Shown: positions 1,548 through 62,787 of the stretch, piece by piece | How positions within the stretch are numbered: position 1 is the first letter of the stretch | Layout: each line of letters begins with the position of its first letter | From: Patescibacteria group bacterium | GTDB lineage: Bacteria; Patescibacteriota; Microgenomatia; UBA1406; GWC2-37-13 | Direction of reading: 5' to 3' | Assembly: GCA_026004455.1 (NCBI GenBank) | Contig: BPJE01000002.1 | Location: 5,207-69,206 of the forward strand | DNA length: 64,000 nucleotides | The notes under the pieces: generated by a model | Database searches by the model: none | Told to the model about the DNA's origin: nothing | Seen by the model: the letters and a program-made list of their open reading frames with translations, nothing else | Position numbers and translations under genes: made by a program

Positions 1548-1581
1548 AATTTTATTAATTTCTAAACTTAGACGTAGTAAA

Positions 1582-1609
1582 AGTATAGCAAAATTTCTTA
1601 ACTTTTCAA
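1582..1609 (-). promoter_or_regulatory. sigma70-like promoter candidate for the 615..1547 ORF
   Basis: Minus strand reads TTGAAA (1609..1604), a 16-nt spacer, then TATACT (1587..1582), about 35 nt upstream of ATG 1547. Confidence 0.3.
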
Positions 1610-1797
1610 CAAACAGCTTATATCGCTTAATGAGCTTTTCTTTTTTTGTATTTCTTCTCAAATTATTGTTAAATCTTTAACTTTTTCTTTATCAGACAAA
1701 GCAATAATTTCTTAAACATATTCATACAATCATACTTCAGTTTATTTTTTCGATAGGTAACGGAAACGAACATAATCGTTTTATTTTCTCAAGTTTT

Positions 1798-12261: not shown

Positions 12262-12384
12262 AATCCGACCTACGCGGTCGCCTTTAGATTATTAGGACAA
12301 TACAAAAATTAACAAAAATGACTAATTTTAAATTAACCTAATTATTAAGGACAGAACCTTTTTGAAAAAAAAGGTTCTGTCCTT
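12262..12384 (+). repeat. composite repeat, copy 1 (30-nt GC-rich core, AT spacer, REP hairpin 12347..12384)
   Basis: AATCCGACCTACGCGGTCGCCTTTAGATTATTAGGA..AACAAAAATGACTAATTTTAAA..AAGGACAGAACC hairpin. The reverse complement recurs at 43918..44032. Confidence 0.75.
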
Positions 12385-20332: not shown

Positions 20333-20456
20333 AATTCAAAATGCAAAAGTCAAATCTGCCAGCTGGCGGACAAAATGAAAATTCAAAATTCAAAATTTAA
20401 AAAAACTTTTTAATTTTAACTTATACTTTTGACTTTTGAATTTTAACTTTTGAATT
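20332..20456. repeat. AT-rich palindromic element, copy A (TTGACTTTTGAATTT words) with an embedded GC palindrome
   Basis: AAATTCAAAATGCAAAAGTCAAA..TCTGCCAGCTGGCGGA..ACTTTTGACTTTTGAATTTTAACTTTTGAATT. Confidence 0.75.
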
Positions 20457-20493: not shown

Positions 20494-21429
20494 ATGATTA
20501 TAATCACTGGCCAAACTGCAACCGGTAAAACTGCTCTTGCTTTAGAATACGCTAAAAAATATAAAGGCGAACTGGTTAACTTTGACTCTCGCCAAATTTA
20601 CAAATATTTAGATATTATTACTGGAAAGGATTTACCAGCGAAAACGGGTGTTTCGAGCGAAGGGCTCCCGACTGGCCGCAGGCGATTTTTCCAGCCTGCC
20701 GCTGGTCGCCGAGCACAGTCGGGATTACGCTCGAAACAGGACCCGTTTTCGGTATGGTTATATGACATAGTGACTCCTGATCAATATTTTTCATCATTTG
20801 AATATGTAAAAATAGCTCAAAAAGTAATAAAAGATATCAAATTACGAGGCAAAACTCCAATTTTAGTTGGCGGCACATACTTTTATCTTAAACATCTTCT
20901 TTATGGATTTGATTATCAAGTTCCGCCTGATTTTATCTTAAGAGAAAAATTAAATCAAAAATCAGTCGCAGAACTTCAAAAAATAATCCAAGAACTTGAT
21001 CCAGAAATTAAGCAAAAAATGAATCAAAGCGACTGGCAAAATCCAAGAAGACTAATAAGAAAAATCGAAATCCTTAAAAACCAAGGACAGAACCTTTCAG
21101 GTTCTGTCCTTTTAAAGACCGTCCCTGATCTTTTTATTGGCTTAAAACACAAAAACAAAGAACATCTTTATCAAGCAATAAAAACCAGAGTAGAGAAAAG
21201 ATTAAAACAAGGAGCAATTAAAGAAGTAGAAAAAATCTTAAAAATGGGCTATAAAAAAACTGATCCTGGTCTAAATACCATTGGTTACAAACAAATTATT
21301 GATTATCTTGAAGGAAATATCACTAAAGATCAAGCGATTGAAAAATGGATTACCGCCGAGGTTCAATACGCCAAACGTCAATATACTTTTATGAAGAAAG
21401 ACAAGAATATAAAATGGATTGAAATATAA
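20494..21429 (+). CDS. miaA: tRNA dimethylallyltransferase
   Basis: P-loop GQTATGKTALA, DSRQIYKYLDIITGK, ILVGGTYFY. Carries two repeat-derived in-frame segments (20639..20751 and 21083..21125). Confidence 0.9.
   Translation: MIIITGQTATGKTALALEYAKKYKGELVNFDSRQIYKYLDIITGKDLPAKTGVSSEGLPTGRRRFFQPAAGRRAQSGLRSKQDPFSVWLYDIVTPDQYFSSFEYVKIAQKVIKDIKLRGKTPILVGGTYFYLKHLLYGFDYQVPPDFILREKLNQKSVAELQKIIQELDPEIKQKMNQSDWQNPRRLIRKIEILKNQGQNLSGSVLLKTVPDLFIGLKHKNKEHLYQAIKTRVEKRLKQGAIKEVEKILKMGYKKTDPGLNTIGYKQIIDYLEGNITKDQAIEKWITAEVQYAKRQYTFMKKDKNIKWIEI
20639..20751. repeat. GC-rich palindromic element inserted in frame in miaA
   Basis: CGAAAACGGGTGTTTCGAGCG..CCGACTG..CAGTCGG..CGCTCGAAACAGGACCCGTTTTCG. Translated as AKTGVSSEGLPTGRRRFFQPAAGRRAQSGLRSKQDPFS. 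Confidence 0.8.
21083..21125. repeat. GGACAGAACC-type hairpin plus tail, inside the miaA coding sequence
   Basis: AAGGACAGAACCTTTCAGGTTCTGTCCTT + TTAAAGACCGTCCCT, read as QGQNLSGSVLLKTVP. Confidence 0.8.
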
Positions 21430-21432
21430 TTT

Positions 21433-23322
21433 TTAATTTTTTTTAAACAACTTCATAAATGCCTCTTTGGGTACCTCAACTTTTCCTACCATCTTCATTC
21501 TTTTTTTTCCTTCTTTTTGCTTTTCCAAAAGCTTTTTCTTTCGACCAACATCACCAGTCCCCAATACTTTTCCAGATTTCATCAAAACATCTTTTCTAAA
21601 AGGTGCAATTCTTGTTGAAGCAATAATCCTTCCTTTATACTGACCTTGAATCTTTACCTCATACTGCTGTCTTGGGATCAAATCTTTTAACTTGCTTGTT
21701 AAATAACTAGCTCTCTCATAAGCTTTTTCCTCAACAACAATCTCAGAAAATTCTTCAACTGGCTGATTATTGATTAAAATCTTCAACTCATCTGCCTTAA
21801 CATCTCGATAATCTAAAAACTGCCAATCAAGTGAAGCAAAACCAGATGAGACGCTTTTTAGAGCGTCAAAAAAATCCGTAATCATCTCTGCCATTGGCAT
21901 CTCATACTCTAAAATTATTTGATTTTTATTATCCATAGTTAAAAATTGACTGCGATATCTTTGCATTAGTTGCATAATATCACCTAGATATTTTTCTGGA
22001 GTTAAGATAATCACTTTTACCCACGGCTCTTTTTTTACTCCCCGAATATTTGTATCCTGATATTCAACTTTTGGCGGAGTTAAAACAAGGCTTAAACCGA
22101 ACTCTCTTTCAAGTCTCTCCCTGATAACATCAGCATGAAGCAGTCCTAAAAATCCAACTCTAAATCCTGTTCCTAAAGCCTGACTATAAACTCCTTGAAA
22201 CTGCAAAGACGAATCATTCAAAGATAATTTTTCTAAAGCTTTTTTTAAGTTTAAATAATCAGCCGTATCTGTTGGAAAAATTGAAGCAAACACCATCGAC
22301 TTAATTTTTTTATAACCCGGAAGAGAAAGATCATCTTGCTCTTTAAAATCAACCACTGTATCACCAACAGCTACTTGATGGATATCTTTTAAGTTAGTGA
22401 CAACATAACCAATTTCACCGGAAACTAATTTTTCGCTTGGTGTTAAATCAGGTAAAAAATAACCAACCTCATTGATCTCAAAATTAGTTTTTAAATTAGC
22501 TAGTTTTACTTTCAAGCCTTTTTTCAACTCGCCGCTAAACACTCTTACAAAAATAATCACCCCTCGATGAGAATCATAATAAGAGTCAAAAATTAGTGAT
22601 TGAGAACACACCCCATTACCCCTCTCAAGAGGGGAATAAGAGGTATTATTTATAGAAACTCCCCTCTTTGAGAGTGGGTTTGGGGGTGTGTTAGGATCAG
22701 GTATTTTTTTAATTACTGCCTCAAGAAGTTCTTTTACTCCTTGTCCAGTTTTTGCTGACACCAAAAAAACCTCCTCATCTTTCACTCCCAAAAAATCAAC
22801 TAATTGTTTTTTAGTTTTTTCAACCTCGGCATTTGGCAAATCAATCTTATTTATTGCTGGAATAATCACTAAATTTTTCTCAATTGCCTTATAAGCATTA
22901 GCAATTGTCTGAGCTTGGATTCCTTGAGTGGCATCAACCAAAAGAATCACTCCTTCAACACAAGCCAAAGTCCGATCAACCTCATAAGAAAAATCAACAT
23001 GGCCCGGAGTATCAATCAAATTAAGAATGTAATCGGAGGAAGATGTCAAATTTTTTTCAACTTGGGATGTCTGTCCGACAAATGTCGGACTAGGGGACCC
23101 ACTGGAGATAAAAAAATTTGACATCGACTCCGATCTCAAAAACATTCTCACTGGAGCAAGTTTTATCGTAATTCCACGCTCTCTTGATATTGGGTTTCTA
23201 TCCAATAACTGCTCCTCATGTTTTCCAGCTGCGACTATTCCTGTCAACTCCAAAAATCTATCTGCCAAAGTACTTTTTCCATGATCAACATGAGCAATGA
23301 TGGCAAAATTGCGAATAAACAT
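21433..23322 (-). CDS. lepA: translation elongation factor 4 (LepA)
   Basis: IRNFAIIAHVDHGKSTLADR, LIDTPGHVDF, NKIDLP, and a C-terminal LepA domain. Two palindromic in-frame insertions. Confidence 0.95.
   Translation of the reverse strand: MFIRNFAIIAHVDHGKSTLADRFLELTGIVAAGKHEEQLLDRNPISRERGITIKLAPVRMFLRSESMSNFFISSGSPSPTFVGQTSQVEKNLTSSSDYILNLIDTPGHVDFSYEVDRTLACVEGVILLVDATQGIQAQTIANAYKAIEKNLVIIPAINKIDLPNAEVEKTKKQLVDFLGVKDEEVFLVSAKTGQGVKELLEAVIKKIPDPNTPPNPLSKRGVSINNTSYSPLERGNGVCSQSLIFDSYYDSHRGVIIFVRVFSGELKKGLKVKLANLKTNFEINEVGYFLPDLTPSEKLVSGEIGYVVTNLKDIHQVAVGDTVVDFKEQDDLSLPGYKKIKSMVFASIFPTDTADYLNLKKALEKLSLNDSSLQFQGVYSQALGTGFRVGFLGLLHADVIRERLEREFGLSLVLTPPKVEYQDTNIRGVKKEPWVKVIILTPEKYLGDIMQLMQRYRSQFLTMDNKNQIILEYEMPMAEMITDFFDALKSVSSGFASLDWQFLDYRDVKADELKILINNQPVEEFSEIVVEEKAYERASYLTSKLKDLIPRQQYEVKIQGQYKGRIIASTRIAPFRKDVLMKSGKVLGTGDVGRKKKLLEKQKEGKKRMKMVGKVEVPKEAFMKLFKKN
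22604..22692. repeat. GC-rich imperfect palindromic element in frame in lepA (insertion B)
   Basis: AACACACCCCATTACCCCTCTCAAGAGGGG..CCCCTCTTTGAGAGTGGGTTTGGGGGTGTGTT. Encodes NTPPNPLSKRGVSINNTSYSPLERGNGVC just before the conserved LIFDSYYD. Confidence 0.75.
23042..23125. repeat. 84-bp palindromic element in frame in lepA (insertion A)
   Basis: Perfect 16-nt terminal inverted repeats GATGTCAAATTTTTTT / AAAAAAATTTGACATC with an inner hairpin GTCCGACAAATGTCGGAC. 84 nt equals 28 codons (MSNFFISSGSPSPTFVGQTSQVEKNLTS), placed before YILNLIDTPGH. Confidence 0.8.
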
Positions 23323-23335
23323 AAAAATTAAAAAT

Positions 23336-23459
23336 AATTCAAAAGTTAAAATTCAAAAGTCAAAAGTATAAGTTAAAATTAAAAATTTTTTTAAATTTTT
23401 AATTTTGAATTTCAATTTTGACTTTTGAATTTTGCATTTTGAATTTTACTTTTGACTTT
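23336..23459. repeat. AT-rich palindromic element, copy B, in the lepA/mntH divergent intergenic region
   Basis: ATTCAAAAGTTAAAATTCAAAAGTCAAAAG..center..TTTTGACTTTTGAATTTTGCATTTTGAATTTTACTTTTGAC. The right arm is the reverse complement of the left arm of copy D. Confidence 0.75.
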
Positions 23460-25622: not shown

Positions 25623-25651
25623 CTAACTTCTAACATCTAATACTTAAAAAT

Positions 25652-25748
25652 AATTCAAAATGCAAAATTCAAAAGTCAAAATTGAAAATTTAAAAACTTT
25701 TGACTTTTAACTTAAACTTTTGACTTTTGAATTTTGACTTTTGACTTT
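25652..25748. repeat. AT-rich palindromic element, copy C
   Basis: AATTCAAAATGCAAAATTCAAAAGTCAAAATTGAAAATTTAAAAACTTTTGACTTTTAACTT..TTTTGACTTTTGAATTTTGACTTTTGAC. Confidence 0.75.
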
Positions 25749-25750
25749 AT

Positions 25751-26551
25751 TTAGACATAATCCGCAAACTCGCCCTCTTGTTTTTTAAAAATCAAATAAG
25801 CAATACCAAAAAAAACAATTGAAAAAACTGCTGCTACCATCATACTATTTAAATTCGGCGCTTTTCCACCTAAAATAACTTGTCGATAACCATTGATGAT
25901 CACTGACATTGGATTTAATGAAAAAATAAAACGATATTTTTCTGGAAATTGCTCAACTGGATAAATAATTGGTGTTAAATAAAACCAAATTTGAATAATA
26001 AGATTAAGCAAATACTGAATATCTCTGTAAAACAGATTAAAAGAGGAAATAATCAGGCTTAATCCAGCAGTAAAAAATAACTGAATGATAAAAATTGGGA
26101 TTACCCACAATATTGCTAAATTAACAGAAATTTTATAAAAAATAAAGAAAAAAATAGCGATTAAAACCGAGTAAAAAAAATCAACTGCCTTAGCGATAAT
26201 TGTCGCATAAATTAGTATCTCTCTTGGAAAATAAATTTTAGTGATTAAAGAAGCATTACTAACCAAAGCATTAGCTGATGATGATAAGCTTTGAGTAAAA
26301 AAATTCCAAGGCAAAAGACCAATAATTAGAAAAATTATATAAGGAACATTATAAGATGAGACGCGAAAAATTGTTGAAAAAACAAATGATAAAACTAACA
26401 GTTGAAATAGAGGATTAAGTATCACCCAAGCATAACCTAAAATTGATTGTTTATATCTTTGATTAATCTCTCTGTAAGCAAGATTAAAAAGTAATTCTCG
26501 ATAAAAGATAAGTAATTTTAAATTTTTAAAACCTTTTTTTATTTTCTCCAT
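25751..26551 (-). CDS. ABC-2 type transporter permease (TagG/Wzm-like)
   Basis: 266 aa with 6 TM helices, N-terminal YRELLFNLAYREINQRYKQSILGYAWVILNP typical of ABC-2 permeases. Confidence 0.75.
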   Translation of the reverse strand: MEKIKKGFKNLKLLIFYRELLFNLAYREINQRYKQSILGYAWVILNPLFQLLVLSFVFSTIFRVSSYNVPYIIFLIIGLLPWNFFTQSLSSSANALVSNASLITKIYFPREILIYATIIAKAVDFFYSVLIAIFFFIFYKISVNLAILWVIPIFIIQLFFTAGLSLIISSFNLFYRDIQYLLNLIIQIWFYLTPIIYPVEQFPEKYRFIFSLNPMSVIINGYRQVILGGKAPNLNSMMVAAVFSIVFFGIAYLIFKKQEGEFADYV

Positions 26552-29439: not shown

Positions 29440-29476
29440 AAGGACAGAACCTTTTTTTCAAAAAGGTTCTGTCCTT
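29440..29476. repeat. GGACAGAACC-type REP-like hairpin
   Basis: AAGGACAGAACC-TTTTTTTCAAAAA-GGTTCTGTCCTT. Confidence 0.8.
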
Positions 29477-29576: not shown

Positions 29577-30131
29577 ATGAGCCTAAATTTACTTATTGAT
29601 TCAGGCAAAACTGTCTTTACAACCATTGATCTAGGTAATATATTAAAAATAGGAAATAAAAACTATCTTTTGGTTTACATCAATAGACTGAAAAAAAGAG
29701 GTGAAATCAAAATGATTAAAAAGGGAATTTATGTAATCAATAATAATTTTAATGTATTTGAATTAGCCAATAAATTAAGATCTCCATCTTATGTTAGTTT
29801 ACAATCAATTTTATTTAAAAACGGAATTATCTTTCAGGATTATTCTGATATTATTACTTCAATTAGTTACAATACTATCAAAATCAATCTAATTAACAAA
29901 GAATTTAGATATCATAAAATAAAATCAGATTTGCTTTCCAATCCTAAAGGCATTGTTGTTGAAAATAATGTTAGATTAGCGACGCCAGAAAGAGCTTTTA
30001 TTGATTTAGTTTATATTTATAATGACTATCACATAGATAATCTTGATAAACTAAATAAAAATCTTTTATTAGAAATTGCTAAAGATTTTGGAGACAATAT
30101 TTTTAAAAAAATAAAATCATACTATGCTTAA
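29577..30131 (+). CDS. AbiEi-like type IV toxin-antitoxin antitoxin / transcriptional regulator
   Basis: N-terminal winged-helix-like VFTTIDLGNIL..YLLVYINRLKKRGEIKMIKKGIYV. Overlaps the downstream AbiEii-like gene by 8 nt. Confidence 0.6.
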   Translation: MSLNLLIDSGKTVFTTIDLGNILKIGNKNYLLVYINRLKKRGEIKMIKKGIYVINNNFNVFELANKLRSPSYVSLQSILFKNGIIFQDYSDIITSISYNTIKINLINKEFRYHKIKSDLLSNPKGIVVENNVRLATPERAFIDLVYIYNDYHIDNLDKLNKNLLLEIAKDFGDNIFKKIKSYYA

Positions 30132-30813
30132 TCTATTAAAACATCGAGTAGTTCTTTTTAATATTTTAAAAGATATTTATAAAAGCTCTCTTAGTAATTT
30201 ATTGGGATTTAAAGGTGGAACAATGGCTTATTTTTTTTATGGTTTAGATAGATTCTCTGTTGATTTAGATTTTGATATTTTAGATGAGAAAAAAATTGAT
30301 TATGTAAAAAAAGTCCTTCCTGATATTTTAAAAAAATATGGAGAAATAATTGAAAGTTATGATAAATATTCTACTTTATTTTATTTATTATCTTACGAAA
30401 AAAAACAAAGACAAATAAAGATAGAAATTTCAAAAAGAAATATCCTATCAAATTATCATCTTTCAAATTTTTACGGAATTGATATTTATATTCAAAATAT
30501 AGAAGATGCTTTTGCCACAAAACTTTTAGCCTGTACTACAAGAAAAAAAATTGCTTATCGGGATTTTTATGATGTTTTATTTTATTTAAAAAAAGGAGTT
30601 AATCCAAATGAAGAAATTATAAAAAAAATTACTGGAAAAAATTTAGTCGATTATCTAAATTATTTAAAAGAATTTATTGAAAAAAATGTCACTAATCAAA
30701 AAGTAATTGAGGCAATTGGCGAGCTAATTAATGAAAAACAAAAAAACTTTTTAAGAAAAGACTTTAAAAACGAACTCCTATCATATCTCAACCTCTATCT
30801 TAAAAATATATAA
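30124..30813 (+). CDS. nucleotidyltransferase AbiEii/AbiGii-family toxin (DUF1814)
   Basis: GFKGGTMAYFFYGLDRFSVDLDFD matches the family motif (KGGTAL..R.S.DIDF). Confidence 0.7.
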   Translation: MLNLLKHRVVLFNILKDIYKSSLSNLLGFKGGTMAYFFYGLDRFSVDLDFDILDEKKIDYVKKVLPDILKKYGEIIESYDKYSTLFYLLSYEKKQRQIKIEISKRNILSNYHLSNFYGIDIYIQNIEDAFATKLLACTTRKKIAYRDFYDVLFYLKKGVNPNEEIIKKITGKNLVDYLNYLKEFIEKNVTNQKVIEAIGELINEKQKNFLRKDFKNELLSYLNLYLKNI

Positions 30814-31044: not shown

Positions 31045-31977
31045 TTATACGTTACACATTACACACTTTATCAGCCCCCATACATTTCTCGCTCTCTCAA
31101 TCAAAAAAGCAGGGGAGAGAGGGATGATATCTGGATGTTTAAAAAACAACCGCCACCAGTTGACAACATCTTGCCTTTGTTTAAAACAACCCATTTTTAA
31201 GGAAGTTTTTCGATGATGATGAAAAACAACAATATCAGGCACTAACGCAAATTTATACCCAGCTTTTTTCAATCTTAAAAAAAGATCAACATCCTCCAAA
31301 TACGCAAAAAAACTCTCATCAAATCCACCTAACTTTTCAAAAACACTTCTTTTTATGAGCAAACACGCCGCTGTTAATCCATCTAGATTATTATAACTTG
31401 CAAGCGAAGACACCTGTTTTCGAAGTCTATGACTTGGGGGACCCCCCTTTAGGGGGTGAAGTCGACGAGAAAACACGGTGTCAAGCGGTATAAAATTTTT
31501 AGTAACTAGCTCTATTTTTCCAATCTCCATCACCCTATACCCATAATTTTCTACACTTCCATCAGGATTGATTAATATCGGCGCCACCGCATCCAAATTG
31601 TTTTCTTTGGCAATTTTTAATAATTCATTAATTGGGTTTTTCACAATTTTTAATTTTAAATTGTCATTTTGAGATTTGAGATTTGAATTTTGAATTTTGA
31701 ATTTAATGTCATCATTCAAAAGCAATAACCACTCCGCCTTCGCATATTTTGCCCCCAAATTATTCGCCCTCGCATACCCCAAATTCCTCTCCTGCGGCAG
31801 ATAAACAATGTTTCTATTATTAATTTTGAATTTTAAATTTTCATTTTGACTTTTGACTTTTGCATTTTGAATTATTATTATTTGGTATTCCTTCTTCTCT
31901 TTAAAATAATTAATTAAGTATCTCACTCCCTCCTCATTCGTCAACGTCGGCACAATAACAGAGATTTTATAAAACAT
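31045..31977 (-). CDS. family 2 glycosyltransferase
   Basis: ISVIVPTLTNEE, GYARANNLGAKYAKAEWLLLLNDD, and AYLEDVDL. Contains three repeat-derived in-frame segments, and its tail reads into an ACGT-word repeat. Confidence 0.75.
   Translation of the reverse strand: MFYKISVIVPTLTNEEGVRYLINYFKEKKEYQIIIIQNAKVKSQNENLKFKINNRNIVYLPQERNLGYARANNLGAKYAKAEWLLLLNDDIKFKIQNSNLKSQNDNLKLKIVKNPINELLKIAKENNLDAVAPILINPDGSVENYGYRVMEIGKIELVTKNFIPLDTVFSRRLHPLKGGPPSHRLRKQVSSLASYNNLDGLTAACLLIKRSVFEKLGGFDESFFAYLEDVDLFLRLKKAGYKFALVPDIVVFHHHRKTSLKMGCFKQRQDVVNWWRLFFKHPDIIPLSPAFLIERARNVWGLIKCVMCNV
31409..31482. repeat. GC-rich palindromic element in frame in the GT2 gene
   Basis: GACACCTGTTTTCG..GGGGGACCCCCCTTTAGGGGG..CGAGAAAACACGGTGTC. 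Encodes DTVFSRRLHPLKGGPPSHRLRKQVS. Confidence 0.7.
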
Positions 31978-42909: not shown

Positions 42910-43239
42910 CTATTTCAAGGACAATAATCTCTGCTTGGCAATTTCAATCTCTTTTTTTGGTGTTTTTTGTTTTTGTTTTTTAAAAGCTGAAAGTAAGTAA
43001 ATTGTCCTTCTAATAAATGTATAAATAATTCTTATTTCTTCTTTTCCTCTAATTCTTAACTCATATAAATTTGAATCAAGTTTTTTAGCATGTGGCATTC
43101 CTAAAAATGAGCCATAAATTTCTAAAAGATCTAAAAGATGGATTATTTTAGCAATTGCTTGAGGTTGTTGTTTTTTAATAAAATCAGCAACTGGTCTTTC
43201 GCCTCTATTTGTCTCAAATTCTAATATTTTCCAATTCAT
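42910..43239 (-). CDS. RelE/HigB-superfamily toxin (phage Gp49-like)
   Basis: WKILEFETNRGERPVADFI..LYELRIRGKEEIRIIYTF..IYLLSAFKK. Start set at the internal ATG (MNWKILEF). Confidence 0.7.
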   Translation of the reverse strand: MNWKILEFETNRGERPVADFIKKQQPQAIAKIIHLLDLLEIYGSFLGMPHAKKLDSNLYELRIRGKEEIRIIYTFIRRTIYLLSAFKKQKQKTPKKEIEIAKQRLLSLK

Positions 43240-43315
43240 ATTCGGATTATGAATTTTATTTTTTATTTTATCAAAATTTAAAAAAACTAAAAATACCAAG
43301 AAATACCAAAAGTCC

Positions 43316-43357
43316 AAGGACAGAACCTTTCAGGTTCTGTCCTTTTAACGAGTGTAC
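43316..43357. repeat. GGACAGAACC-type hairpin plus tail
   Basis: AAGGACAGAACCTTTCAGGTTCTGTCCTT + TTAACGAGTGTAC. Confidence 0.8.
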
Positions 43358-44202: not shown

Positions 44203-45873
44203 TTAGATGTTAGATTTTAAATACTCTCCTTCTACCATCTCATCAAATCCCAATTTTCGATAATATTCTCTTGTTCCAACGGCAGCAATCACAGCGATTT
44301 TTTTTAATCCGAAATCTTTGGTTATTTCTTTTGCTTTTTCAATCAGTTTTTTACCTATTCCTTGATGCTGAACATCGCCTTTGTCTCCAATAGGATATCG
44401 CTTGTCCTAAAACATGTAACTCGCGGATAATCGATGAGTCAGAAAGAGAACTAATAAAAAACTTTTCTTTTGAAAAAATAAATGATGGAATTCGCAGCCG
44501 AAGATATCCTAAAAGTTTATAATCTTCATCAACTGTCTCAATAAAAAATTCTTTTCCACCGCTTGATGAGTAGGGGATAATGTTGATTTTTACTTTGCCT
44601 TTAATTTTTTGATTTCTTATTTCCCGACAACGAATACAAGGACATTTCTACTCCTTTTTTCTTTTAAATACTTTTCTAAATTTTGGCGAAAATTTGAAGG
44701 AAAAGTCTCAACCACAAGATCATTTCTTGTCAGATCACGCACTAATCGATTAATCCTCACCCATGGCGGAACAATCTCTTTTTTAAATTTTTCTGTTAAC
44801 CGCCATAGATATTGCTCGTCAATTGGTTTGTATTTTCCTACCTTATACCAATTAGCCAAAGGACTATTTTTCACCACTTGAGTTGGATAAAACTTGATAT
44901 TATCAGGCTTAAAATTTTCACTCTCAAATACCTCTTTTAAAACTTTGATATCTTTTTCAAAATTTGAGCCAGGTAATCCCGGCATCAAATGATAAGTGAT
45001 TTTAAAACCAGCATCACGAAGCATCTTTGTCGCTTTGATAACTGAGTCAATAAAATGACCTCGGTTGACTATCTTTAAAACCTCATCATCAGTTGACTGA
45101 ACTCCAAGCTCGATCCTTGTCACTCCAAGTTTTCTTAAAAAATAATATTTCCTCCTCATTTATATAATCAGGTCGAGTCTCAATCGTTAAGCCAACCATT
45201 CGCGATTTAGCTTTTTCATTTAAAATTTTTGCCTCATCTAAACTCTGACTTTGTGAAAATTTTATCTTTCCTTTTATAATAATTTTTTTCAATATCGCTA
45301 TTTAAACAATCAAAAACTCGTCTCACAAACCATTCTCGATATTTTTTATCATAGAAAGAAAAAGTCCCACCTTGTATAATCAACTCAACTTTATCAATCG
45401 GATGACCAGAAAGGTTAAAACTGGACTAATCGATCAAATGTCTGTTTAAATGGATCATAATCTGATCGGATTGCTCTTAAAACTGCCGCCTCATCGGGAA
45501 AATAACTTTTTGGCGCCTCTTCTACTAAAGCGCAATAAACACAGTTAAAAGGACAAGAGTTTTTTGGAGAGGTAAATACTGACAAAGGGACAATCCCAGA
45601 AAGAGAGCGAATCGAGACCACTTTTAAAACATCTAAAAACTCTTTGTTTTTTATTTAAAAAAATTTTTATTTTGAGAAAAAAATCTTTCATAAATAAATC
45701 TCAAGTGCCAAATTTTGGGAAAAAAATCTTTGATATTTTTTTTATCAATAAATTGACGGATAAAAAAATGAAGTTCTTTTTTATTGGTGATTTTTTTTGT
45801 TGCCAAATACAAAAAAAGTTCTTTTAATAACTCTTCTTTCTCTTTTGGAAAAGTCCTCTGGATAATAAAGCAT
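44203..45873 (-). pseudogene. Elp3-like radical SAM plus GNAT acetyltransferase (tRNA wobble-uridine modification family), fragmented
   Basis: CPFNCVYC radical-SAM cluster (45415..45621), ELGVQSTDDEVL..GHF..ITYHLMPGLPG core (44617..45159), and a C-terminal GNAT QHQGIGKKLIEKA (44203..44400). The frames differ between pieces. Confidence 0.6.
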
Positions 45874-46708: not shown

Positions 46709-47900
46709 ATGACTATTGGAGTTGATATCACGCCACTTTTATTTCCAGCTACAGGTGTTGCTAAATATACTTATAATTTAGTAAAAAATCTTCTTTTAAT
46801 TGATAAAAAAAATCAGTATAAACTTTTTTTTGTTTCAAAAAACTCCAAAAATCATTATCCATTTTTGCAAGAATTTGAAAACCTTGGCGCAAAAAATTTA
46901 TCACTATCAAATTCCTTTTAAATTACTGCAATTTTTTTTGGCAAAAATTAAATATTATTCCCGTTGATTTTTTTGTTGGTAAAGTTGATATTTTTTATGC
47001 TAATGATTTTTTTGCGTTCGCCATCAAAAACAAAAACCATTACCACCATCCACGACCTCACTTGGAAACTTTATCCAGAATATCACACAAAAGAGGTAAT
47101 TGAAGCTCACACAATTAAACTTGAAAAAACCATAAAATATGGTGATGAAATCATTGTTGACTCAGAAAATACAAAAAATGATTTGCTTAAACTTTATCCT
47201 CAAGTTGATAAAAACAAAGTCCATGTCATTTATCCAGGAGTAGAGGAGAGATACAAAGAAAAGTTAAAAGTCCCACCTAAAACGGCGGGCAAGCAAAAGT
47301 CAAAAGTTGACGAAGAAAAGTCAAAAATTATTTTTGAAAAATATTTAAAAAACAATATACGTTCCACGTTCTACGTTTCACGTTACATATTATATGTTGG
47401 CGCTATTGAACCAAGAAAAAAACCTTGATATTGCAATAAAACTATATCATCAACTACTTACTACTAACTACTTACTACTTGATACTAAATTCTTTATCAT
47501 CGGTCGTGCTGGTTGGAAAAATGAAAAAATATTTTCTCTTGTTAAAGATCTTCATCTTGAGGATAAAGTGATATTTTTAGGCTATGTTGAGGATGATGAT
47601 TTGCCAGTTTTTTATCAAAATGCTTTAGCAACTATTTATTTATCAGAATACGAAGGCTTTGGACTGCCACCGCTTGAATCAGCATACTGTGAGACTCCAG
47701 TTTTACTCTACAAAAACTCTTCACTTAAAGAATTATTTACTGATGATTATCCATATGCAAAAAAAGGAGAAGAGCTTGAAACTTTAAAATATCTTATCAA
47801 AAACAAAATCAATCCTAAAAAATACTTAAAACAAGACTTCTCCTACAAAAAAACTGCGCAAGAGTTTCTAAAACTCATAACCAAGGACAGAACCTTTTAG
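46709..47900 (+). pseudogene. GT4-type (GT-B) glycosyltransferase split into three ORFs
   Basis: ILYVGAIEPRK / NLDIAIKLY is joined by removing one A from the A7 tract 47416..47422. EYEGFGLPPLESAYCETPVL is the GT4 signature. A first break lies near the T8 tract 46934..46941. Contains ACGT-word and TACT-word repeats in frame. Confidence 0.6.
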
Positions 47901-49843: not shown

Positions 49844-49880
49844 AAGGACAGAACCTTTTTTTCAAAAAGGTTCTGTCCTT
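49844..49880. repeat. GGACAGAACC-type REP-like hairpin
   Basis: AAGGACAGAACC-TTTTTTTCAAAAA-GGTTCTGTCCTT. Confidence 0.8.
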
Positions 49881-60301: not shown

Positions 60302-62566
60302 TTATTTGTTTCCCGAATGAAACTTTTCATGAATCTCTTTTAATCTCGTATTAGTCACATGAGTGTAAATCTGAGTGGTTGAGATATTTTTATGTCCCAA
60401 CATCTCCTGTACACTTCGCAAATCAGCCCCATGTGACAATAAATCTGTTGCAAATGAATTATGGCTTATAATGCCATCAGTTATTAAATTATGATTTTTT
60501 TCAACATAAAAATCGTATACAGTATATTGAGAGGATCCTAATTTTGTTTTTGACTTAACTTTTAAGAATTTTATATTTCTTAAGTTTGCTAATTTATAGT
60601 ATTCTAAATATTGTTTATCATTAATTACTCCTAATTTCTTAAATCCCTTTATTATTTTTATAAACGTACTTTCGGTAGGCATTAAATTTTCACAATAACG
60701 AACTATATCTTTAATTTTCATTTTTTCGAAAGTTTTACTATATTGTATTTTATTTAATTTCGCTTTCTCAATTAAATTAGAAATTATTTGATTAAAAGGT
60801 AGTTTAGTATAATCATCTTTTATCTTTTTACTTATTATAATTGTTTCATTTTTTAAAGTAGGTATAAACTTTTTAAAAGTTATAATACTTTTTTTATCTA
60901 AAATTACTAACTCATAAATTCTACTTGAATAAATTTCTTGATTATGAGGTAAGATAGTATTTCTTTTTCTTTTTTCAAGGTGACTATCAATTCCAAAATA
61001 AAGAAGAAGCATTTGAATTTGTTTTAGCAATAAAAAAGATGATGAAAAAAATCGAGGATTTTCAGTCTTAGTTAATCCCTCCGCATCATAAAATCCAGCA
61101 ATAAAATATCTTATTTCTTCTTTTGTTGCATTAAATATTTTTTTGGGAATTAGTTTTTCTTTTGCTTTTTTATTGAAATCAATTAGTTCATGAAAAAATT
61201 CAACTAACTCTTTTGAATAAAAAACCAATTGAAATGAATTTGAGTTGGGACTTTTTAAAATTTTTCCTTTTTTTCCAAAAAGACTCTCTATTAAATCAAG
61301 ATAATATTCTAAAATATTTTTATTTTTATCAAAAATAAAAATACCTCTTCTTAACTTATTAACAACGCCATCACCAAGAACATAACCAACTATTCTCCAT
61401 AATCTTTTATCTAAGGTTTTTTTACCTTTGTGAGGAATAATTTTAGGAGCAATAAGATTTTCACCAATTTGTATATCTTTTGCTTTTTTTTCAACAAAAC
61501 TTTCGTTGTCAAAAATATATAAAAGATGATTACCAGAACATTTTATCTCATACCCATCAGCAAAAATTGAATAAAGATAAGTATTATGGGTTGATTTTAA
61601 AATAATTTTATCTTTGACAATTTTTTTATTTTTAAAATCCAAAGAATAAATTCCATTTTCTAAGCTAAAATAAAGTTCACGAGCTGATATTAAACCATCT
61701 TTAGTAAAAATTAAAGTTTCTGGATGCAAACAATGTCTTAAAACATGCGGTCCAAATCTAAATAAAATTCCTGCTTTTTTTCGATATTTATCAATCATTC
61801 GCTCAACTGATCTTACTGACAATCTCATTTTTTCATTGGTTAATCCCTCTTTTGCCTTTGGCCCAGAGTAACGAATAAAAAGAGGAGAGTAGGGATCATC
61901 TCTTTTGTCTAAATATTTTTTAAGCCATTCTTTAGCTCGCTTAGATAAAAATACCACCCTTGCTTTTCCTCCTTTTCCAATTACCCCAAACTCACCAGTT
62001 TCAATATTGACTTGCTCTCGATTTAAATTAACAAGCTCTGAAACTCGAAGACCAGTAGAAAATAATACTTCTAAAATCGCTCTGTCTCGCAAACCAATGA
62101 TATCAGAAATATCTACTACATTAAATAGTTTTTCTAATTCTTCAGGAAGTAAAAATTTTATTGATCTATCTCTTTGTTTTCCAAGCTCTATCATCTCGGG
62201 AGGTAAAACCTTTAATTTTTGCTTTATCAAATATCTAAAAAAACTTCTTAACGCCACCAAAAAATAATTTTGTGTTTGTCTTTTTAACTCACCTTTATAA
62301 GGATTTTTATAATAATGTGAAAGATAAAGCCTAAACTCTCTGATCGTATTCTCATCAATCTCCTCAACATTTATTAAATTTTGACTTTTGACTTTTAACT
62401 TTTGACTTTTTAATATCCATTCTTTAAAAAAATTTAAATAATATCCATACATTTTGACTGTTTTTAAGGAAAGGTTTTTATCAAGCTCGCAATATTCTAA
62501 AAATCTTAAAATTGCTTCATTAATATCCATAATTTTAATCTTAAACGACGCTAATGTTTTTTTCAA
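60302..62566 (-). CDS. xerC: Xer-type tyrosine recombinase precursor carrying an intein
   Basis: N-terminal SAM-like domain and [20 protein letters not shown] (Arg box). HVLRH / [34 protein letters not shown] is split by a 425-aa insert. 329 aa remain without it. Confidence 0.9.
60458..61732 (-). mobile_element. intein with a LAGLIDADG homing-endonuclease domain (residues 279..703 of the Xer ORF)
   Basis: Starts at Cys1 (CLHPETLIF), block B-like CSGNHLL, LAGLIDADG motifs [10 protein letters not shown] and [10 protein letters not shown], and ends [21 protein letters not shown] followed by Ser+1. Confidence 0.85.
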
Positions 62567-62580
62567 TATATGTAATAAAA

Positions 62581-62691
62581 AAATTCAAAATGCAAAATTC
62601 AAAAGTCAAAATTGAAATTCAAAATTAAAAATTTAAAAAAACTTTTGACTTTTAACTTTTATTTTTGACTTTTAAATTTTAACTTTTGAAT
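62581..62691. repeat. AT-rich palindromic element, copy D, in the xer/tRNA-Leu divergent region
   Basis: AAATTCAAAATGCAAAATTCAAAAGTCAAAATTGAAATTCAAAATTAAAAATTTAAAAAAACTTTTGACTTTTAACTTTT..AACTTTTGAATT. Confidence 0.75.
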
Positions 62692-62751
62692 TATTTATTA
62701 TTTATTTATTATTGATTAAAAATTTATTTATTTTTTATTTGTTATTTTAAA

Positions 62752-62787
62752 AAGGACAGAACCTTTTTGAAAAAAGGTTCTGTCCTT
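62752..62787. repeat. GGACAGAACC-type REP-like hairpin
   Basis: AAGGACAGAACC-TTTTTGAAAAAA-GGTTCTGTCCTT. Confidence 0.8.

Follow-up and report, generated by a model that had tools for sequence, protein, structure and literature searches.

A palindromic repeat inserted in frame in lepA of a Patescibacteria group bacterium, probably a selfish hairpin element tolerated in a permissive loop

In a 64,000-nt stretch of the genome of a Patescibacteria group bacterium (GenBank:GCA_026004455.1, contig BPJE01000002.1, positions 5,207 to 69,206 of the forward strand; the whole of this stretch is hereafter called the window), the gene lepA, which encodes the GTPase LepA (EF4), was found to contain a palindrome of about 100 nt in frame with the coding sequence. 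Homologous palindromes, hereafter family 1, were identified between genes and within other genes of related bacteria. [quoted passage not shown]

The lepA palindrome and its insertion site

The gene and the parts of the palindrome have the following positions in the window:

21433..23322, minus strand: lepA (EF4) coding sequence, 629 aa (open reading frame list, homologues, Pfam GTP_EFTU/LepA_C)
23032..23134, minus strand, same orientation as lepA: full family-1 palindromic element (~103 nt), encoding approximately RSESMSNFFISSGSPSPTFVGQTSQVEKNLTSSS
23042..23057: arm 1 of the 16-nt inverted repeat, GATGTCAAATTTTTTT (+ strand)
23110..23125: arm 2 of the 16-nt inverted repeat, AAAAAAATTTGACATC, exact reverse complement of arm 1
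23032..23038: first side of the outer stem, ATCGGAG, pairing with 23128-23134
23128..23134: second side of the outer stem, CTCCGAT, pairing with 23032-23038
23073..23090: apical hairpin GTCCGAC-AAAT-GTCGGAC with a 7-bp stem, inside the GC-richer core
23090..23103, minus strand: non-palindromic core motif AGTGGGTCCCCTAG, read in lepA sense, present in nearly all of 18 copies
23060..23073, minus strand: non-palindromic core motif CAGACATCCCAAGT, read in lepA sense, conserved across copies

The initial annotation, made from the sequence, had described an 84-bp element at 23042-23125 with terminal inverted repeats (TIRs) of 16 nt. The two arms are indeed exact, and the hairpin that had been noted in a GC-richer core between them is present at 23073-90, but the extent was too short, because pairing runs outward past a small internal loop to ATCGGAG/CTCCGAT, giving a palindrome of 23032-23134. 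The inverted repeats are therefore real, but not as bare termini; they form one section of a long covarying hairpin, and the 84-bp feature would represent the inner portion of a repeat of about 100 nt that folds as a single long hairpin. When folded as single-stranded DNA, the 84-nt segment gave -22.7 kcal/mol, compared to -8.3 +/- 2.3 kcal/mol in shuffled sequences (z = -6.4; 0/200), and the full palindrome as RNA gave -47.6 kcal/mol. Within the window, 8 perfect inverted repeats (arms of 16 nt or longer, loop no longer than 100 nt) were counted, compared to 0.06 expected under a first-order Markov model, and the one at 23042-23125 was the sole genic one among them. The peptide first quoted for the element (MSNFF...NLTS) was correctly identified as part of the protein (residues 67-94), but the 84-nt block lies 1 nt off the codon grid, the peptide being encoded by 23041-23124. 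The tryptic peptide predicted to span the insert is SESMSNFFISSGSPSPTFVGQTSQVEK.

The proteins closest to the window LepA were LepA/EF4 of Patescibacteria, 570 to 663 aa in length and labelled Microgenomates or Roizmanbacteria, and LepA entries in the PDB were matched at E = 1e-163. LepA is highly conserved, yet not strictly essential in model bacteria. In an alignment of 40 LepA sequences, nearly all length variation was confined to two sites: site 1, between the strand ending in RM.Y and YILNLIDTPGH, where the window protein has 33 additional aa, and site 2, between KIPSP and SLIFDSYYD, where it has 26. Ten or more extra residues were present at site 1 in 30 of the 40 relatives and at site 2 in about 26 of the 40, and the shortest relatives (P0099, P0115 and P0119) had no additional residues at either site. 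The family-1 element occupies site 1, the loop between two strands upstream of the DTPGH motif; its placement in the G domain directly before YILNLIDTPGHVDF, proposed in the initial annotation, was thus borne out by these three relatives and by the solved structures, all of them insert-free. Upon comparison with Aquifex LepA (PDB:2YWE), phmmer left window residues 67-95 unaligned between 2YWE residues 69 and 71, and residues 218-240 (site 2) unaligned between 2YWE residues 193 and 194. In addition, a community lepA allele from run X14 had 21 nt at this position, compared to 120 nt in the window, and was thus shorter by 99 nt or 33 codons. Judging from the insert-free relatives in the candidate phyla radiation (CPR) and from the solved LepA structures that lack it, the site-1 palindrome is a true insertion. 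The alignment of orthologues, which had been suggested as a check, revealed a clean insertion that is in frame as claimed, but has 33 extra codons relative to the insert-free relatives, not 28.

Surface exposure, also proposed for examination by modelling, was consistent with an AlphaFold2 model of moderate quality (mean pLDDT, the predicted local distance difference test score, 68.8), in which residues 67-95 formed a coil with a pLDDT of about 24-29, bounded by strands 57-63 and 97-104. The coils of lowest confidence, 67-95 and 215-237, both lay between confidently modelled core elements. By this model, the insert is predicted to occupy a disordered, permissive surface loop of the LepA G domain. 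Between the window and the close strain L020, lepA had 58 synonymous and 14 nonsynonymous differences; as judged from the sequences, the gene is intact and under purifying selection.

Copies and structure of family 1

Homologues of the palindrome were located both in other lepA genes and elsewhere. DNA-level homology to the site-1 element of the window, with AGTGGGTCCCCTAG, CAGACATCCCAAGT and AAAAAATTTGAC in common, was evident in the site-2 inserts of P0022, P0011 and P0116 and, in more diverged form, in that of P0003. Site 1 of other lepA genes carried a shorter copy in P0025 and a decayed one in P0010, the latter having lost its pairing (-18 kcal/mol) with the frame still open. A metagenome scan with a pattern consisting of both arms and GGGTCCCC yielded 42 loci, about 13 of which were clear family-1 members. 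About 10 of these were intergenic, and since such copies occur between convergent, divergent and tandem neighbours, a reading of them as terminators was rejected. Two scanned copies lay inside long open reading frames (ORFs), in opposite orientation: one in miaA of L034 and the other in a PMT_2-family gene of L028. With a covariance model derived from 18 copies, all 18 were recovered, the window was matched at 23030-23136 on the minus strand with 104 bits, and two copies were added: one in miaA of L019 (the P0022 genome) and a second one that abuts the L065 element in inverted orientation. Altogether, family 1 was found at no fewer than 20 distinct loci over the metagenomes and the relatives. 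In its genic copies (LepA site 1, LepA site 2, MiaA and the PMT_2 protein), the host frame is open and stop-free with the phase kept. A census of frames in which one sense and one antisense frame were usually stop-free, compared to 12.5% per frame in shuffles, is indicative, the frame anchoring being imperfect. By this distribution, the family is dispersed in Microgenomates/Roizmanbacteria-like Patescibacteria of hot springs and other environments.

The two L065 copies (1575-1678, plus strand, and 1678-1778, minus strand) are intergenic and arranged head to head, and L037 has at 2681-2771 a candidate for a weaker second copy in a similar arrangement. It was also noticed that L031 (2649-2740), L047 (8492-8586) and L058 (1529-1587) contain a related-looking palindromic family, GCGAGCCAATAAATTTTTTCGAGGCGAGGGGTCCCCC...GAAAAAATTTGATTGGCGAGCG, which has AAATTTTTT/AAAAAATTT arms as in family 1 and a GGGGTCCCCC centre. 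Searching GTDB with the exact arms gave 17 matches that were rejected as family members, all of them being in unrelated phyla and resembling chance AT-rich hairpins. A profile of 8 element peptides had no match at E <=10 among 5.8 billion proteins, which is no evidence of absence because the peptides are too short, and a phmmer search of 1.8 billion representatives with the 34-aa peptide returned no more than 3 multi-stretch matches, seemingly compositional (low-complexity).

The consensus of family 1 is one hairpin with four helices, namely an outer stem, an arm stem, a short GGG/CCC helix and an apical hairpin. The outer stem, separated from the arm stem by the internal loop TCG/CTTC, varies in sequence among copies with its complementarity kept. 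The AAATTTTTT/AAAAAATTT run of the arm stem does not vary and frequently has a bulged G, and the GGG/CCC helix is bounded by conserved non-palindromic loops, AGTGGGTCCCCT and AGACATCCCAAG. The apical hairpin is hypervariable, being different in nearly every copy and paired in all. In a MAFFT alignment of the 18 copies, which come from different species, double compensatory changes were observed in 15 of 29 pairs, and 91.4% of cells were paired, compared to 76.8% in shuffles. The covariation score was 0.379, compared to 0.129 in shuffles (0/500), a test inflated somewhat by relatedness, and to at most 0.136 in slid registers; because this slid-register control stays low, the covariation signal is taken as real. 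The counts of 20 G.U and 11 A.C pairs give no clear strand preference, since one column alone holds 8 of the G.U pairs. No family of Rfam 15 reached its gathering score, the best being generic miRNA-hairpin models at 15-25 bits, compared to 80-94. The initial annotation had named orthologues with the same peptide but no inverted repeat as the case that would speak against it; the orthologues with this peptide (P0002 and P0003) keep the inverted repeat too.

Turnover at the loops and explanations weighed

When the window was folded in sliding segments (mean -11.5, sd 5.7 kcal/mol per 100 nt), three further extreme hairpins stood out within ORFs, all of them in frame:

22605..22692, minus strand: lepA site-2 insert, unrelated to family 1, in the linker between the G domain and domain II; -51.7 kcal/mol
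20638..20751, plus strand: insert in miaA (20494-21429), 62% GC, -76.5 kcal/mol, encoding approximately AKTGVSSEGLPTGRRRFFQPAAGRRAQSGLRSKQDPFS
31409..31482, minus strand: 'family 2' insert, GACACCGTGTTTTC...GAAAACAGGTGTC, in a family-2 glycosyltransferase gene (31045-31977)

The window thus has at least four in-frame palindromic inserts, in three genes, within 64 kb. The site-2 insert of lepA, AACACACCCC...GGGGTGTGTT with the nested pair CTCTCAAAGAGGGG/CCCCTCTTGAGAG, encodes approximately PLSKRGVSINNTSYSPLERGNGVCS and is absent from solved LepA structures; an intergenic remnant of this element is located at L018 12989-13021. The miaA insert is placed after ITGKDLP, is present also in the P0003 genome and is absent from L024, L025 and L034, and it has a partial intergenic relative in L022. 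Over 86 nt, the insert of the glycosyltransferase gene has 87% identity with the lepA site-2 insert of L034, and peptides of its type are found at site 2 of at least five other LepA proteins.

Close strains differ in what these loops contain. In P0003, with 89% nucleotide identity, the site-1 element is retained (3 changes in 84 nt), and a completely different, family-1-like element is present at site 2; the site-2 insert is likewise replaced by a family-1-like element in the strain of run X15, whose contigs break at exactly 22594-22693 (lepA site 2). L020 and runs X2-X4, with a LepA 98% identical to that of the window, keep both lepA inserts gap-free and have about 112 nt of unrelated AT-rich sequence in place of the miaA insert. 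Close strains thus have different elements in the two loops of LepA and in one loop of MiaA, which at the level of sequence is turnover. All 72 lepA differences between the window and L020/L021 fall in one 630-nt tract (gene nt 735-1365, ~21958-22588) with identical flanks, a tract that looks like a recombination mosaic. Because the differences are confined to one tract, homologous recombination of alleles is a plausible route for the replacement of inserts; for the same reason, the absence of differences from L020 in the inserts (0 in 199 nt) is uninformative. Third-position divergence from P0003 was equal inside (3/35) and outside (20/165) the element, and extra conservation of the inserts was rejected on this ground.

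According to the explanation we favour, that of a selfish hairpin repeat, most copies would be intergenic and landing in a gene would be occasional, with genic copies persisting only where the site is a permissive surface loop, the frame is kept and no stop is introduced. Such a copy would be read through as a Ser/Pro/Gly-rich disordered loop, and the insert would bring LepA no benefit, being selfish or neutral. Movement or copying may be due to a trans-acting enzyme that recognizes the folded hairpin, or the element may spread by recombination. The conserved loops and the bulged G are proposed as determinants of recognition; structure-specific recognition of the folded strand is suggested because the asymmetric loops and the bulge are conserved, the stems covary and no target-site duplications occur.

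Several observations weigh against this explanation. No copy among the 18 aligned showed a target-site duplication, their flanks being inverted and not direct, so that the search for such duplications recommended in the initial annotation came back empty. No gene for a transposase or a RAYT-like protein (RAYT, REP-associated tyrosine transposase; REP, repetitive extragenic palindrome) was detected by Pfam in 43 of the 54 window ORFs of at least 110 aa, the other 11 matching housekeeping genes annotated in the syntenic locus L018. The covariance model finds a single copy in the window, where the 16-nt arm, for which the initial annotation had suggested a search, likewise has no second copy at up to 1 mismatch, and an exact-arm pattern, too strict for relatives, had no Patescibacteria match in the GTDB representative genomes; because of this single copy in 64 kb and this lack of an exact-arm match, copies per genome may be few. 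Among the close strains examined there was no insertion/excision polymorphism of the window site-1 copy, and mobility is inferred from the distribution of copies only. Reads of one metatranscriptome from a related study gave zero coverage of the window lepA. Finally, strong covariation together with conserved loops could also mean a structured nucleic acid of benefit to the host.

This last possibility, in which the hairpin is an RNA or DNA structure under selection (for translation pausing during G-domain folding, mRNA stability or processing, or protein binding) and mobile ancestry is incidental or wrong, is in our estimation improbable. It would account well for the strong stem covariation and the loop motifs conserved in 18 copies, for the retention of the site-1 element in lineages 11% apart at the nucleotide level, and for one arm change in P0003 that gives a G.U in the sense RNA. 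However, intergenic copies occur in all relative orientations and ORF copies both ways, so that no RNA strand or position is conserved, and the G.U and A.C counts are without clear strand preference, one column excepted. Moreover, many relatives have no insert, an unrelated insert or a decayed copy (P0010) at the same loop, the equal third-position divergence in and out of the element (3/35 and 20/165) reveals no added constraint, and Rfam has no matching family. It is still less probable, and we think very unlikely, that the segment is transcribed but missing from the mature protein through mRNA removal, translational bypassing or excision as a mini-intein. All genic copies preserve the frame and are stop-free, neither of which removal would need, and the P0010 copy is in frame despite its lost pairing; there is no Rfam intron match, and about 33 aa without intein motifs is far below intein size. 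What speaks for removal or bypassing is the very stable hairpin within an ORF (-47.6 kcal/mol as RNA) and the presence of an intein-interrupted recombinase in the same window. Intervening sequences in essential genes are well known in CPR genomes, which counts in the same direction, and the byp elements of yeast mitochondria and T4 gene 60 are cases of translational bypassing.

An origin of the palindrome in place, by template switching or quasi-palindrome correction, with the identity of the arms resulting from mechanical homogenization and not from selection, would fit the perfect arms and the two LepA loops as recurrent hot spots; template switching can also yield compensatory-looking changes without selection. 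Against it, the cores AGTGGGTCCCCT and AGACATCCCAAG are common to intergenic, miaA and PMT_2 copies and to copies at two LepA loops, and because non-palindromic cores recur in such unrelated contexts, copying between loci is required. In-place origin is therefore largely refuted for the family and has, as a full account, a very slim chance of being correct, although it could still add to arm homogenization. An artefact of assembly or amplification, such as a chimeric palindrome, has to be considered for DNA derived from metagenomes, as some library methods create palindromes. The insert was base-for-base identical in an assembly of the Joint Genome Institute (JGI) and in a Logan assembly of another run, an NCBI metagenome-assembled genome carries it with 3 changes, and several runs gave 2.2-kb gap-free contigs, leaving to an artefact a practically negligible probability.

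Beyond the selfish repeat itself, a wider scenario may be entertained, although we regard it as rather doubtful. Structured palindromic elements, of which the window has at least four families, would form a whole ecosystem in Microgenomates-type CPR bacteria, systematically colonizing a few permissive loops of core housekeeping proteins (LepA, MiaA and glycosyltransferases) and being swapped between strains. Selection would keep the hairpins because a structure-specific recombinase or transposase, hitherto undescribed, uses them as substrates and acts on folded single strands in the manner of integron integrases or RAYTs; alternatively, the host may have co-opted the hairpins or the encoded loops.

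Further repeats and genes of the window were noted. AT-rich hairpin repeats of the AAAGTCAAAAGT/ACTTTTGACTTT type crowd its spacers (23336-23445, 25647-25752, 20373-20456, 62374-62710 and others), 19 of the 31 matches to the motif being in the non-coding 18% of the window; the AAAGTCAAAAGT-type repeat also appears in translated form, at the miaA site in strain L020 and, in other species, at LepA site 1. In the glycosyltransferase gene at 31045-31977, low-complexity segments (AKVKSQNENLKFKI and FKIQNSNLKSQNDNLKLKI) resemble translated AT-rich repeats. A perfect hairpin with 17-nt arms, AAGGACAGAACCTTTTT / AAAAAGGTTCTGTCCTT, has four intergenic copies (12347-12384, 29440-29476, 49844-49880 and 62752-62787), which may be a bidirectional terminator-like repeat family. 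The tyrosine recombinase gene mentioned above (60302-62566, minus strand; Phage_integrase and SAM-like N-terminal domain) is split by an intein that contains a LAGLIDADG homing-endonuclease domain, another selfish element within a core gene. A GT4 glycosyltransferase in two overlapping ORFs (46964-47428 and 47394-47900), which suggests a frameshift, and a radical-SAM ORF spanning only the C-terminal part of the domain (44617-45159) are possible pseudogenes. The window also encodes a nucleotidyltransferase toxin of the AbiEii family (30124-30813) and a HigB-like Gp49 protein (42910-43317); in the P0003 contig (L018), similar toxin-antitoxin genes adjoin the block of synteny.

Comparison with known systems

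MITEs (Correia/NEMIS, ERIC, RUP, BOX, QMITE and others) are small, TIR-bearing, dispersed elements capable of forming hairpins, with occasional in-frame fusions (PMC10969869). The present element resembles them in size (about 100 nt, below ~500 bp), in coding for no transposase and in having inverted repeats, and the initial description of it as MITE-like holds for its palindromic nature and its DNA-homologous copies at other loci. In classical MITEs, however, there are target-site duplications, and the TIRs correspond to those of a parent insertion sequence (IS); neither was found here, and the whole element is one hairpin and not two TIRs around an unrelated core. Because target-site duplication, parent IS and transposase were not found, formal membership in the MITEs is not established.

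REPs are 20-40 nt long, extragenic by definition, marked by a GTAG or CGTC tag and usually high-copy (PMC3733652). Like REPs and REPINs, which are thought to be recognized as folded single strands by the domesticated HUH transposase RAYT (TnpA-REP), the present element forms hairpins with compensatory stem evolution and no target-site duplications. It differs from them in its size of about 100 nt, its genic copies, the lack of a GTAG/CGTC tag in the alignment and the lack of a RAYT/Y1 transposase in the window. In integron attC sites, imperfect palindromes of about 60-140 nt, what is conserved is the structure, the extrahelical bases and a variable terminal hairpin, and not the stem sequence. 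The element is attC-like in the same respects, but its consensus contains no R''/R' core sites (RYYYAAC/GTTRRRY), there are no cassette arrays, copies occur within ORFs, and no integron integrase was identified. An assignment to inteins or introns is at odds with a size of about 33 aa and no intein domain, with the lack of an Rfam intron model and with a frame that is always kept. In Nematomorpha, long perfect inverted repeats occur in functional mitochondrial coding genes and are transcribed and translated (PMC6649704); both arms there encode conserved protein regions, whereas here the palindrome is an added, non-conserved loop derived from a repeat family.

The closest analogy is with the RPEs (Ogata et al. 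2000, 2002), palindromic repeats of ~100-150 bp in several families, which have intergenic copies as well as in-frame copies in unrelated housekeeping genes, with the peptide placed compatibly with the protein fold, and which are without a known transposase or clear target-site duplication (PMC10969869). Shared with them are the size, the small AT-rich genome of the host, the multiplicity of families, the combination of intergenic and in-frame genic copies, the fold-compatible site of the peptide and the lack of a known transposase or clear target-site duplication. The element is of the 'protein-coding palindrome' kind on both counts, since copies are in frame in unrelated genes as well as intergenic and the loop is compatible with the fold. 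RPE hosts, however, are intracellular Alphaproteobacteria, whereas here the hosts are free-living or episymbiotic CPR bacteria of hot springs in an unrelated phylum; because the host belongs to the Patescibacteria, membership in an RPE family is not claimed, but only an analogy of function. In addition, the stems here covary around conserved asymmetric loops, and two LepA loops are repeatedly occupied by different families that are replaced between close strains. For other prokaryotes, a similar process is a matter of speculation only in the review (PMC10969869), and no description of such elements in CPR/Patescibacteria was found in the full-text literature, subscription journals aside.

In-frame palindromic elements are unusually pervasive in CPR, with four in 64 kb and two LepA loops filled in most relatives. 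Such inserts explain in large part why conserved proteins of CPR bacteria vary so oddly in length (LepA, 570 to 663 aa), and they call for caution in annotation and phylogenetics, where segments of this kind are repeat-derived and non-homologous between species. They also provide natural maps of insertion tolerance in core proteins. A covarying hairpin with conserved asymmetric loops offers a handle for finding the mobilizing enzyme, which is unknown even for RPEs. In-frame 'protein-coding palindromes', hitherto treated as a peculiarity of Rickettsia, are now found in a deeply divergent uncultivated lineage.

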